From the NCBI GenBank assembly GCA_051294905.1, contig CM119371.1, positions 31,126,001-31,190,000 on the forward strand: a stretch of 64,000 nt of DNA, written 5' to 3'. This stretch comes from Botryllus schlosseri. Its lineage: Eukaryota. Positions 40,731-58,377 of the stretch are shown in pieces. A program made the translations under genes and the position numbers. The notes under the pieces were generated by a model. The model was not told the origin of the DNA. It was given only the letters and a program-made list of their open reading frames with translations, and searched no databases. Position 1 is the stretch's first letter, and each line of letters starts with the position of its first letter.

Positions 40731-40955
40731 AGTAGTGTTATGGGAATCGTTTGGTACGCACCAATCCCAGAAGGCCACGTCGCCTTAATTGCCACGCCTA
40801 CAGGACGCCCATTGCCACGCCTATAGGACGCCCATTGCCACGTCACTTGCCGCACCTATATGACGCCCATTGCCACATCATCAGCCCATTGCCACATCAT
40901 CTGTGCCACATCATCAAGCGCCACGCCTATATAACGCCCATTGCTACATCATCAT
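40731..40955 (+). repeat. Polinton left TIR (perfect 40731-40802) plus subterminal short-motif array
   Basis: Exact reverse complement of 58306-58377, followed by shuffled CCCATTGCCAC / GCCTATAGG / ACATCATC motifs. Confidence 0.95.
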
Positions 40956-41203
40956 GATTATGCATACTGAGCTGTTTTTGAGAATATGAATTCTCGCGTA
41001 ATACACTAAACGTTGAACTAGATTTCATAACGTCATCACAGAGGAATCAGTCAACTATCTTGCTCTAGGTTGTAGGTTTGATCCCTGTAGTCACCGCATT
41101 TCATACGATTCGGCGCTTTTCATATCTCTTAACACTTTACTCAGTATCATTGAAATAGCATTGTATAATGTAGCAGTTCATTTTATTTCGAAAAAATAGC
41201 ATA

Positions 41204-41686
41204 TCAATGATATCGCTGATCGTTATTGCGTCGATTCGCGTGCTGAAATCCTCCAGATCTGTTGATGTTTCGAGGTACACCGCTTTGCTGCCATCCGACG
41301 TTGCGATCCGAGTTCTTGCGTTCGATCTGTCCATTTTGTTTGATGTAGCGATCACTGGCTTGTAGTACATACGATACGAGCGGAAGGTCAGGATTAGGAA
41401 CAACTACGCTGGGGGAATAGATGACGAATTCGTCAGCCGGATTCAGAGGTTGATAATGCTCGATTCCGTCGCGAGTATACGTAACGACCAAACCTCCTTC
41501 ATGCTTCAGAGTGGCTCGATATTTCTGAATGGTCCCGTTTGTGGAATGTACAAAGAGTTGATCCGAGGTCAATTCTGCCCCATTCGAGGCTTCGATACGT
41601 AATTTTGTGATGTCATTAAAAAGATACAACTCTTTTCTATAGGGCCCTTGGGGCAGAATAGTATCTCCACGGATTGCCAGACTCAT
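41204..41686 (-). CDS. Polinton accessory ORF of unknown function (probable start MSLAIRG; may continue by frameshift into ORF 41403-41137)
   Basis: Open 160 codons from the ATG at 41686, beta-rich appearance, directly downstream of the BIR gene; no recognised motif. Confidence 0.5.
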   Translation of the reverse strand: MSLAIRGDTILPQGPYRKELYLFNDITKLRIEASNGAELTSDQLFVHSTNGTIQKYRATLKHEGGLVVTYTRDGIEHYQPLNPADEFVIYSPSVVVPNPDLPLVSYVLQASDRYIKQNGQIERKNSDRNVGWQQSGVPRNINRSGGFQHANRRNNDQRYH

Positions 41687-41702
41687 TCTTTGAAAAGAAA
41701 TA

Positions 41703-42251
41703 TTAAACATAAGTACAACAGTCATCACGCAATTCCACCTCGCCATCAAATTTAGTCGAGCCTCTTCTTATATTAGGTGTCGCATAACAGACATTACGAA
41801 TATATTGCAGCCCCTTGCGCTTTATGAGAAAAGGACATGTAGGATAAAACTTTGCATGCTCGAGCCAGGGATCATCGCACGGCAACCAATTTTGAAACAG
41901 CCCACCACACGAGAAACACTTTAAATGATCCTTATAGCCCAAATAGAACAATCCGCAGTCAGCGAGCTCAGCTCCGGAGGTAATGATATTATCCGGCCAC
42001 CGCATAAATGTGCTTAGTCTACGTGCATAGCGTACCATGTTATAGAAAACGGGATCATTCAACGGGGAGACAGTTACATCTCTATGCTTCGCATAGCATT
42101 CATAAATCTTTTCCCCTCTGTTATTTATCATAGCTTGGTACTGTTCAATGGGACCCATCCGAGTTTCATCTTCGCTTATTTCTATGCTACTTGTGGTATC
42201 GATGCAAGCGCAGTTGAATGTAGCGTAATTTGTAGGATCCACACTACGCAT
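41703..42251 (-). CDS. Single-BIR inhibitor-of-apoptosis-like protein
   Basis: RRLSTFMRWP...LADCGLFYLG..DHLKCFSCGG..QNW...DDPWLEHAKFYPTCPFL is a complete BIR with CX2C-H-C zinc ligands. No RING seen. First in-frame ATG is 42251, downstream of a TATA box. Confidence 0.92.
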   Translation of the reverse strand: MRSVDPTNYATFNCACIDTTSSIEISEDETRMGPIEQYQAMINNRGEKIYECYAKHRDVTVSPLNDPVFYNMVRYARRLSTFMRWPDNIITSGAELADCGLFYLGYKDHLKCFSCGGLFQNWLPCDDPWLEHAKFYPTCPFLIKRKGLQYIRNVCYATPNIRRGSTKFDGEVELRDDCCTYV

Positions 42252-42319
42252 AGGTAGCGAATCGCTTTGATCAATGTTCGACACTGCTATCCGAATTGAT
42301 ATACTCTCATGATCAGTAT

Positions 42320-42555
42320 GCTTTATATAGATATTGAGCTATGCACCATCGAAAAAATGTGCTTGGTACCGATCGAATGATCAGCCCCGAGGTCGTATCA
42401 TGGAAATTAGAATGTCGACTGCTCACAGAAAAGACACGTAGCTCATATCCGTTCCTGGTACGTATTATCAATAATTAGAATGCTAGTAAGAATGCCACGA
42501 GTACAATCACGCGCTCTCCGCGTGTCAAGCGCATGTACTTCACTATATAAGAGAG
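42320..42555. promoter_or_regulatory. Putative divergent promoter with back-to-back TATA boxes
   Basis: CTATATAAAG on the minus strand at ~42321-42330 ahead of the BIR gene; CTATATAAGA on the plus strand at ~42543-42552 ahead of ORF 42590. Confidence 0.55.
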
Positions 42556-56817: not shown

Positions 56818-57518
56818 TCAGTAGTTAGATGCTTGCTACAACTCGCAATTTATCAACTTTAGGTCGTGAGTAAAGCAAGAATTCATAGACTAACATCCAT
56901 CTCAAATCCGAAGTGCATACCCGCGTAATTATAACCAAATTTAGTGCGAATCTATACGGAAATGTAGCCTAAATCACCTGCGTCATTAGGTGAAGTGCAT
57001 AGCGCGATAGTTGTGATAAATGCGAAATTTTCCGAGCGTAAATTGCGTATATGCGATGTCGGCGTTTTGATCTGAAATGAAATGAGCGAATTTAAATATA
57101 GGTGATAAACTATTGCTCTTGCTAATTATTATAACCACACCGAGATTCGAGTAATAAGCGAGCCTAGATAGTCTACCTTTAACAGAAAACTTGCGTATAC
57201 ATTCGAATTTGTGCGACTTCGGCTATATTGCCGGTTAACATTATAGCCACGCGCAGGACTCACCATTACGTTAGCTATTGGAGAAATCTCAACGTAAATC
57301 AATCTGCGTTCACAATTCGCGTAAGCTAATGCTGCATCGAGAAATTATAGCTAAATTGAGTTTAAATTGACACGAAAATACATTGGTCTTACCTCAGCTG
57401 CGATACCTGCGTCCCTGCGCACATGGCAATACTTGTAATAGAAATGTGAAGTTTTCAGAATGCGAATTGCTTTACGTCGGAACTAAACATTCTAATTCGT
57501 AACGCCAGCGCGGCGTTT

Positions 57519-57695
57519 TCTTGGAAACGCAACTATATTTAGAATGTTCTAATTCCCATTATCGATGTGGCCCGACTTTTTGGAATCGCAACTATATTTA
57601 GAATGTTCTAATTCATATTGTCGATGTGATCCGACTTCTTGGAATCGTAAGCAACTATATTCGTGCCGCATTTACACGCGTCAATTTCTTGGAAT
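57519..57695. repeat. About three imperfect ~60-bp tandem repeats
   Basis: TTCTTGGAA.CGCAACTATATTTAGAATGTTCTAATTC...TCGATGTG..CCGACT repeated. Confidence 0.8.
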
Positions 57696-57928
57696 AGTAT
57701 TCGGCAATATGCGCGGTGCATGAGCTTTGCGTGATCGTAGGCCTTTATGGTTGCGATATCTGTATTATTAAGTTGCATTTGCAGAATTCCCCGAAATCAT
57801 TGACTAATTAATGATGACACAGCTGTTATAGTCTTACATTTATGTGTAATAACTCGAAAAAGGTGTTGTCTCGGAATTTAAGAGAGAATCGGCGGTTATA
57901 TTCTCAAAACAGCTCAATACGGGTAGTT

Positions 57929-58005
57929 TGCTCAATAGCCTGGTGGTGAGCGACGTGACATTATACCCATCCAAGCCAGGTTCGATTCTAGCTAAGGTAA
58001 GTTTT
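57929..58005 (+). ncRNA. tRNA-like putative Pol III unit (A box, B box, T4)
   Basis: TAGCCTGGTGG (57936-57946), GGTTCGATTC (57979-57988), TTTT (58002-58005) at tRNA spacing; cloverleaf stems poor. Confidence 0.45.
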
Positions 58006-58059
58006 GGCGTGGTAATGAGTGTTATAGGTGCAGCAATCGACATCGCGCTGGTTGATGCG

Positions 58060-58377
58060 GCGCTGTGCACAATATAGATGCGGCAATCAATGCGGTGATG
58101 ATGTGGCAATGGATGATGTGGCACTATAGGTGTGGCGCTTGATGATGTGACACAGATGAATGTGGTATGTGATGTGCCAAACTTGGATGATGTGGCAATA
58201 GGTGTGCTATAGGTGCGGCAATGGGCGTGCTATAGGTGCGGCAATGGGTGGATGATGTGGCAATGGGTGTCCTATAGGTGCGGCAATGGGCGGATGATGT
58301 GGCAATGTAGGCGTGGCAATTAAGGCGACGTGGCCTTCTGGGATTGGTGCGTACCAAACGATTCCCATAACACTACT
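58060..58377 (-). repeat. Polinton right TIR (perfect 58306-58377) plus subterminal array
   Basis: Mirror of the left end with a different order and number of GTGGCAATGG / CTATAGGTG / GATGATGT motifs. Confidence 0.95.

Follow-up and report, generated by a model that had tools for sequence, protein, structure and literature searches.

Polintons, or Mavericks, are common in animal genomes and most of their copies are broken. In vertebrates, 96% of the copies are defective, and the intact elements are free of introns (PMC8097293). Adintoviruses of the Beta PolB class carry a pPolB polymerase, an rve integrase with a C-terminal chromodomain, an ATPase, a protease, a double jelly-roll capsid and duplicate penton-like open reading frames (ORFs), with an IAP homologue and motif-bearing accessory ORFs placed upstream of PolB (PMC8502044, PMC11071296). 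In this upstream position, Starrett et al. 2021 (PMC8502044) describe IAP and Bcl2 homologues as well as proteins with “Oncoid” motifs. Here we analysed 64,000 nucleotides of the Botryllus schlosseri genome (assembly GCA_051294905.1, contig CM119371.1, positions 31,126,001 to 31,190,000 of the forward strand; hereafter the window), in which a Polinton of 17,647 bp spans positions 40731-58377 and shares the features given above for the Beta class, with its protease and penton-like ORFs as candidates.

Our results describe a real Polinton copy that is young, encodes a divergent capsid and is defective; it carries the marks of the group and works like other polintoviruses. The overall reading, to which we give a probability of about 0.82, is that of one integrated copy with all core genes, in which the polymerase and the protease are broken and which was likely inserted recently into a host intron. 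The first-pass annotation had described a complete, capsid-encoding endogenous virus; the capsid-encoding Polinton is borne out by the ends, the target-site duplication (TSD), the gene set and the double jelly-roll fold, whereas completeness holds for the gene content only, with the polymerase in three ORFs and the protease stopped at 53839. A single defective Polinton copy is ordinary; what could be of interest is the family, which is likely multi-copy, is young, has a divergent capsid and is seen as RNA in a public single-cell run.

The element has AGTAGT...ACTACT termini, terminal inverted repeats (TIRs) of 72 nt that are 100% complementary, and the 6-bp sequence CAAGGA immediately outside both ends. 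AGTAGT-type ends with a 6-bp TSD are the marks of Polintons, and the chance recurrence of a given 6-mer is about 1 in 4,096. The perfect TIRs and TSD noted at first are thus found again, the former for 72 bp only: inward of base 72 the ends are imperfect arrays of 19-42-bp repeats that are about 80% alike over 208 columns. Nothing else in the 64-kb window matches the element. The observed/expected ratio of CpG is 1.2-1.7 within the element (positions 44000-52000) versus 0.9-1.1 in the left flank, and this lack of CpG depletion gives no sign of long methylation-driven decay.

The likeness to the vertebrate Mavericks extends to these ends and duplication, to the size (range 12.7-24.6 kb) and TIR length (range 46-1,447 bp), and to accessory regions that flank the core and copies that are mostly defective (PMC8097293). 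The element differs in having all core genes on one strand, which that paper reports only for Xenopus tropicalis, and in its predicted intron and 2.4-kb tandem array in the right arm. Membership of the adintoviruses is likely; the integrase has the C-terminal chromodomain given as their mark (PMC11071296), and no match to PF03175 was found in the element polymerase, as is expected for the divergent Beta class. In contrast to the described adintoviruses, LXCXE is missing from the accessory proteins here and one of them has a motif of RXL type, PolB is preceded by a helicase-like ORF whose motifs are dead, and the capsid, three unnamed relatives apart, reaches only about 30% identity to the others. 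Neither RRLDF nor any of four ascidian genera was found in the searched portion of the supplement of Starrett et al., which consists of map labels in the places examined.

Every core gene expected of a Polinton is present, with the minor capsid and protease genes as candidates, in line with the full morphogenesis and replication set claimed in the first-pass annotation (Table 1). Among the 17 element ORFs taken into the Pfam scan, three passed the cut-offs, namely the BIR protein, the A32-type ATPase and the rve integrase with its chromodomain. The polymerase, the protease, the two penton-like ORFs and three small structural ORFs were assigned by motif and position, without a profile match; for the protease, the sole match in the PDB was African swine fever virus S273R, at a weak E of 0.44. 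Across the polymerase pieces, Exo I-III, A, partial B, C and KxY follow one another in order, judged by the patterns usual for this enzyme, and Cys and His motifs stand at the place expected of an OTU-like region. Searches with Pfam and family profiles returned no polymerase match for any piece and none for the OTU-like region, and a homologue search for piece 1 among longer proteins found none. The insert in the polymerase reads FVDG...YDGCYYH and gives a weak RAP match (E 0.0014-0.0017). Polintons with a VSR-containing pPolB2, known from a marine nematode and from molluscs (Jeong et al., 10.1101/2023.08.22.554363), likewise have a nuclease-like insert in the polymerase; from these the element differs in that the RAP match lies below the Pfam cut-off and the polymerase is broken. 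Related loci were found neither in viral contigs with polymerase piece 3 and the integrase, nor in metagenome and viral contigs with the first 19 terminal bases or the capsid.

Table 1. Features of the Polinton and its target site, in positions of the window
Feature	Position	Strand	Basis
Left target-site duplication, CAAGGA	40725..40730	.	flank inspection
Left TIR, 72 bp, starts AGTAGT	40731..40802	+	exact inverted match to right end
Left subterminal array, 19-35-bp repeats, related to right array	40788..40954	.	repeat scan
180-aa ORF (ORF180), no assigned family	41204..41746	-	ORF call
Single-BIR IAP-like gene, 182 aa, complete Cx2Cx16Hx6C zinc motif, without RING	41703..42251	-	Pfam E 3.2e-18
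Gap between divergent genes, TATA-like hexamers; putative promoter	42252..42589	.	sequence
167-aa acidic low-complexity ORF, KRRLDF, four SP/TP sites, no LXCXE	42590..43093	+	motifs
291-codon frame, first ATG 43237, SF3/D5-type helicase ATPase-like, degenerate motifs	42955..43830	+	Atlas, profile
111-aa ORF (ORF111), no assigned family, behind acceptor-like site	43850..44185	+	ORF call
pPolB piece 1: terminal-protein/OTU-like region, Cys and His motifs	44219..45133	+	motifs and position
pPolB piece 2: Exo I-III and motif A, with a nuclease-like insert; frame change on either side	45093..47405	+	motifs, weak RAP match
pPolB piece 3: rest of motif B, motif C (DTDS), KxY	47207..48067	+	motifs
A32/IVa2-type packaging ATPase, Walker A and B present	48071..48688	+	Pox_A32 E 7.9e-8
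Basic core-protein-like gene with predicted 51-nt GT-AG intron	48724..49131	+	reading frame and splice motifs
112-aa basic ORF	49124..49462	+	ORF call; no family match
rve integrase, D,D,E residues, C-terminal chromodomain	49450..50448	+	rve E 4.2e-13, Chromo E 2.6e-8
69-aa hydrophobic ORF	50402..50611	+	no family match
Minor-capsid (penton)-like ORF 1	50608..51417	+	position and motifs; no profile match
Minor-capsid (penton)-like ORF 2	51414..52136	+	position and motifs; no profile match
123-aa basic amphipathic ORF	52114..52485	+	no Pfam match
Major capsid protein, 425 aa, open frame, double jelly-roll fold	52535..53812	+	fold prediction, structure match
Adenain/Ulp1-type protease, His, Asp, Gln, Cys motifs; in-frame stop 53839	53809..54264	+	motifs
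Tandem array, about five 477-505-bp units, 88-99% identical	54387..56816	.	self-comparison
59-bp tandem repeat, 2.2 copies	57518..57647	.	repeat scan
Right subterminal array, 19-42-bp repeats	58049..58317	.	repeat scan
Right TIR, 72 bp	58306..58377	-	exact inverted match to left end
Right target-site duplication, CAAGGA	58378..58383	.	flank inspection

The capsid candidate gives a weak double jelly-roll match in Pfam (E 0.0074), and its profile found no PDB chain by sequence. A model built with 108 relatives reached a mean predicted local distance difference test (pLDDT) of 94.5 and a predicted template modelling (pTM) score of 0.91; the best solved structure is the capsid of the Sputnik virophage (E 1.4e-16, TM 0.70), and the best predicted-structure match is a bracovirus protein at 25% identity. 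Relatives number 4,782 at E <= 0.001 among 1.84 billion cluster representatives; among those listed, the closest three share 79%, 46% and 36% identity with it, the others 25-34%. None of the 10 nearest has an informative name. The uncatalogued lineage proposed at first is made plausible by this distance.

This copy is nevertheless broken. The polymerase is distributed over three overlapping ORFs (44213-45133, 45093-47405 and 47207-48067) in frames 2, 0 and 2. A zinc-finger-like motif is incomplete at the first frame change, and at the second, where an 8-bp direct repeat is found, part of motif B lies in neither frame. Because conserved residues are gone at both frame changes, we attribute the breaks to small deletions; introns and programmed shifts were considered and rejected for the same reason. 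The protease has an in-frame stop at codon 11, which is not carried by the aligned contigs of either public contig run. The element also falls outside the definition of an intact Maverick, with all core ORFs open and intronless (PMC8097293), owing to the polymerase frame changes, the protease stop and the predicted intron. As judged from its reading frames, this copy is a dead provirus that should be unable to make its own polymerase or protease, and it is likely able to move now only with the help of sister copies.

We located the insertion relative to the host gene on the minus strand left of the element, where exons with LDLa-like cysteine repeats are followed further on by membrane-spanning segments. 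The nearest exon, which starts at the AG acceptor TTTATTTTTAG near 39951, lies about 780 bp from the left end; lacking a signal-peptide start, it must be spliced to upstream sequence. Since this exon starts at a splice acceptor, the element likely lies within an intron or the 5′ outron of an LDLa-repeat receptor gene. The host exons match Pfam weakly (Ldl_recept_a E 0.041, in one of four host pieces), and the receptor label therefore relies on the visible LDLa-like and membrane-spanning segments. An insertion in or just upstream of a G-protein-coupled receptor gene had been proposed; the exon at about 780 bp agrees with this, whereas a strict splice scan found no upstream exon in 39952-40730 or 58378-59620, and none was found in the window.

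Public reads give a view of the family. Twenty of the 24 listed runs contain part of 40200-50199 (11 studies), and four runs (X1, X6, X21 and X23) were aligned to 37000-54370, a segment that ends before the right arm and the right junction. In run X6, eight listed pieces inside the element have a depth of 36-74 versus 0.3-1.1 in three unique flank bins. Six X6 pieces from the core differ from the element copy at 37 of 3,804 letters (about 1%), and two from the left arm at 48 of 1,410. These data point to a multi-copy family, with likely tens of copies, roughly, that are about 1% apart in the core; against a literal count stands the fact that contig depth is not copy number. One X1 contig crosses from the flank into 29 letters of the left TIR with no difference, which is short of the 31-letter bar and, as X1 may be the source sample, gives no independent support. 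A further X6 contig (depth 25.2) matches 47904-50230 in short patches only, which hints that the organism carries another Polinton family, more distantly related. Runs X10, X11 and X12, labelled as other organisms, contain 0.36-0.40 of the sampled words of 40200-50199, as do the samples of the main organism; this could reflect related species, mislabelling, prey, contamination or transfer, with no evidence of transfer.

The family is weakly transcribed, from sister copies. In the single-cell run X23, a 3′-biased library of which about 3 in 100 of the run was read and whose strand convention was set by host exons, 559 of 22.2 million records aligned, many of them on host repeats in the flank. 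Summed over 21 bins of the rightward genes, depth is 5.74 in sense versus 1.47 in antisense (a few dozen reads), and the main peak (25.7 versus 2.3) falls in the 3′ half of ORF180, with an AATAAA shortly after it. The reads of this peak differ from the element copy at most listed places and thus come from other copies. Against the overall reading, X23 has no reads in the BIR bin and no sense reads over the KRRLDF ORF. Run X21 (0 of 12.8 million records aligned) provides no test. The stretch 41140-41420, in which the RNA peak falls, is also over-represented in contigs: X1 depth is about 16,000-51,000 there and about 500-6,600 at the other listed places of the element, while X6 depth is 2-4-fold higher. 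It seems that the ORF180 3′ half is carried by many more elements than the core. The excess in depth, roughly tenfold, would fit left-arm sequence shared with palindromic satellites and makes the family a candidate helper of these.

An intron is predicted in the basic core-protein-like gene, which is presumably the PZ/pX-like gene of the element; in the same manner, we take the 69-aa ORF to be PM-like and the 123-aa ORF to be PW-like. The predicted intron (49013-49063) is 51 nt long and 76% A+T, starts with GT, contains CTAAC at 49046 and ends in TTTTAG (49063). Its removal would leave a single frame that runs via a KGGFL motif into a hydrophobic tail; both stops lie inside the 51-nt segment. 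A loose intron pattern finds two candidates in the region, and of 2,000 shuffles 100 contain one or more. This control ignores that the segment covers both stops and preserves the frame. No spliced reads were seen in X23, within the 3′-biased fraction described above. Pyrimidine-rich AG acceptor-like sites at 43844 and about 44202 closely precede ORF111 and the polymerase ATG. AATAAA signals overlap stops at 44173, 48066 and 48684 and occur near 54276; their arrangement suggests nested spliced transcripts.

The left arm holds the accessory genes, and the BIR and KRRLDF ORFs reported there at first are both present. They run away from each other out of a gap of 338 bp, in which TATA-like hexamers stand at 42322-42329 and 42544, in keeping with the divergent promoter layout first described. 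The best PDB matches of the BIR protein are the BIR domains of NAIP, cIAP and XIAP, and four matches found in bacterial genomes, weak and 25-29 residues long, were treated as chance. KRRLDF has the form of an RXL-type cyclin-docking motif. LXCXE is absent from all five left-block proteins, and with it the “Oncoid” mark of LXCXE with paired CXXC. ORF180 reaches no more than 0.78-0.80 in Atlas, with low recognition, and is given no family. Four of its seven listed differences from sister copies are silent, in contrast to a 77-aa ORF at 41137-41370 that we rejected as a gene, since sister copies differ at both of its ATGs and 7 of the 10 differences listed alter the residue. The novelty claimed for a host-manipulation module does not hold in kind, because IAP and Bcl2 homologues and “Oncoid” proteins upstream of PolB are already in print (PMC8502044), and the left block is a known kind of cargo. 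Less usual are the likely inactive helicase-like gene and the predicted intron: neither a dead-helicase-like gene tied to a cyclin-docking motif nor a core-gene intron was found described in the literature searched, a scope that left most subscription journals and Repbase outside.

On balance, we favour homology of the helicase-like ORF to a superfamily 3 (SF3)/D5-type helicase domain. Atlas puts it first with DUF5906, a helicase domain of the D5/SF3 type (0.94; 179 of 256 features), and all ten top family matches fall within one family or clan; shuffled proteins reach 0.9 in 4-10 per 100. A profile built from 24 of 30 bacterial DUF5906 loci scores the ORF at 6.4 bits, which none of 500 shuffles attained and which ranks first of 36 window frames. 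With hhalign, 160 columns align at E 0.0036, and all ten control proteins score lower. Several results weigh against this homology: the profile aligned over the Walker A stretch only, the hhalign probability is 9% with 1 of 200 shuffles as good, the Pfam, PHROG, PDB and phage searches returned no match, and none of 373 candidates was a homologue. A single-sequence model has a pLDDT of 33. The active SF3 set of a GxxxxGK[S/T] Walker A, an acidic Walker B and a motif C Asn is absent: Walker A reads GKNQTGKE, and neither the acidic pair nor the Asn is found at the aligned places. If it is a helicase relative it is for these reasons a dead one.

Papillomavirus E1 combines a KRRLF cyclin RXL motif with an SF3 helicase (PMC7019393), and in the element, too, an acidic N-terminal region with a motif of RXL type precedes an SF3-like domain. 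In mavirus, the SF3 gene S3H stands beside pPolB (PMC11071308), as the helicase-like ORF does here, and helicases occur as rare cargo in coral polintoviruses. The element differs from E1 and mavirus in that no origin-binding domain is visible, the catalytic motifs are degenerate, two frames rather than one are used and the polymerase keeps its exonuclease motifs. We read this likeness as one of working alike, with no homology shown.

The helicase-like frame, which lies at -1 relative to the KRRLDF ORF, has 139 bases in common with it, and the two are probably linked by a -1 frameshift or a splice. A competing explanation, to which we give somewhat less than even odds, is that they are one gene split by a frameshift private to this copy, in which case the slippery heptamer C-CCT-TTC at 43027 would be there by chance. 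This copy has three other lesions, the overlap resembles continuous coding sequence, the same heptamer pattern recurs at the other places scanned, and the RNA behind the site folds no better than shuffles (z 0.57), a result that also weighs against the programmed shift. Against this explanation, one-letter indels were detected elsewhere at a depth of at least 415, yet none is listed in 42955-43093 at an X1 depth of about 1,300 (12 of 41 indel rows shown). Moreover, the heptamer is in register for a -1 shift, and 6 nt beyond it stands a hairpin of 5 bp.

That the left arm is passive cargo, made of captured host fragments without benefit to the element, is a reading that we judge unlikely. The arm is about 3 times more divergent from the sister contigs than the core, and all five listed differences in the BIR, KRRLDF and helicase-like ORFs change the residue, while four of five in core genes are silent (a small, preselected sample). 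The BIR protein also matches animal IAPs. Yet the frames are open, intron-free and tightly packed, the zinc ligands of the BIR are complete, ORF180 is transcribed from sister copies, and comparable genes recur at the same position in other adintoviruses.

The right arm, first described as 4 kb of non-coding sequence, is indeed non-coding and 4.1 kb long, although not featureless, as 54387-56816 is a tandem array whose four full units are 93-99% identical and whose last, partial unit is 88-90% identical. The near identity of the full units and an eroded 36-bp echo of the unit at 57147 would fit a functional cis element, such as an enhancer, a packaging or replication signal or a small-RNA template, as would the size of about 17.6 kb that the element attains with the array, which is close to that of intact vertebrate Mavericks (16.9 +/- 1.7 kb; PMC8097293). 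Speaking against such a function, which we hold to be improbable, the element has no Rfam match at E <= 1, no folding beyond shuffles was found (z -0.95), and the four units translated contain no ORF of more than 52 codons. Slippage during replication is the simplest origin of the array, which is most likely neutral filler.

That this is instead an intact, potentially active provirus with breaks made by sequencing or assembly errors is very unlikely: the perfect TIRs and clean TSD, the sister contigs about 1% away, the otherwise open core frames and the one-letter losses in some X1 contigs, frequent in long-read data, would fit it, but single-letter errors do not explain the missing conserved residues and the 8-bp direct repeat, and the flanks show 0 substitutions over 1,132 and 888 letters against X1 contigs, so that the assembly seems accurate. 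Assembly error at the breaks is unlikely; weighing the other way, no read of exactly this copy was observed across them, and the 12 of 41 indel rows shown include none at the polymerase breaks.

Under the reading of a defective copy in a multi-copy family, the integrase of the family would have inserted the element fairly recently into the host intron. Working members, by what is known of the family, would excise and then replicate by a protein-primed mechanism that starts at the AGTAGT ends. The ATPase would load their DNA of 17-18 kb into a double jelly-roll capsid, which the protease matures, and re-integration would create a duplication of 6 bp. The divergent promoter would drive, leftward, the single-BIR protein, which may buffer apoptosis via caspases or IAP antagonists, and, rightward, the RXL protein, which may recruit or titrate cyclin-CDK (cyclin-dependent kinase) so that the cell supports DNA replication. 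By -1 frameshift or splice, the RXL protein would be extended into the catalytically dead SF3-helicase-like domain, a possible oligomeric scaffold or DNA-binding module, and the right-arm array would be neutral filler from replication slippage. In adenovirus, E2 runs opposite to the late genes, whereas here the polymerase and capsid genes share one strand, and the adenovirus-like early and late organisation seen at first is reduced to a loose parallel.

A bolder version would make this a spliced and transcribed polintovirus with an E1-like early protein (cyclin docking, -1 frameshift and dead SF3 domain) that acts as helper of, and left-arm gene donor to, palindromic satellites; we consider it quite unlikely. 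If the family did help palindromic satellites and IAP-bearing elements, this would be a route by which IAP genes multiply in the host, and a good place to seek the still unobserved animal Polinton particle. If the E1-like early protein were real, it would offer a tractable animal system for Polinton expression and the steering of the host cell.

Other mobile elements surround the insertion. A Ty3/Gypsy element starts at about 59400, with an open gag-pol ORF of 1,415 aa (59624-63871, plus strand; protease, reverse transcriptase (RT), RNase H and integrase) about 1.2 kb past the right end and probably in the same host intron. Introns of the host gene also contain decayed mobile elements at 18960-20772 (minus strand), 25687-27204 and 11521-12156 (minus strand), which we tentatively take to be transposase-like frames and a Penelope-like RT/GIY-YIG remnant. 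Finally, short inverted-repeat stretches resembling miniature inverted-repeat transposable elements lie at 58563-58677 and 39500-39620, with similar motifs on both sides of the insertion.

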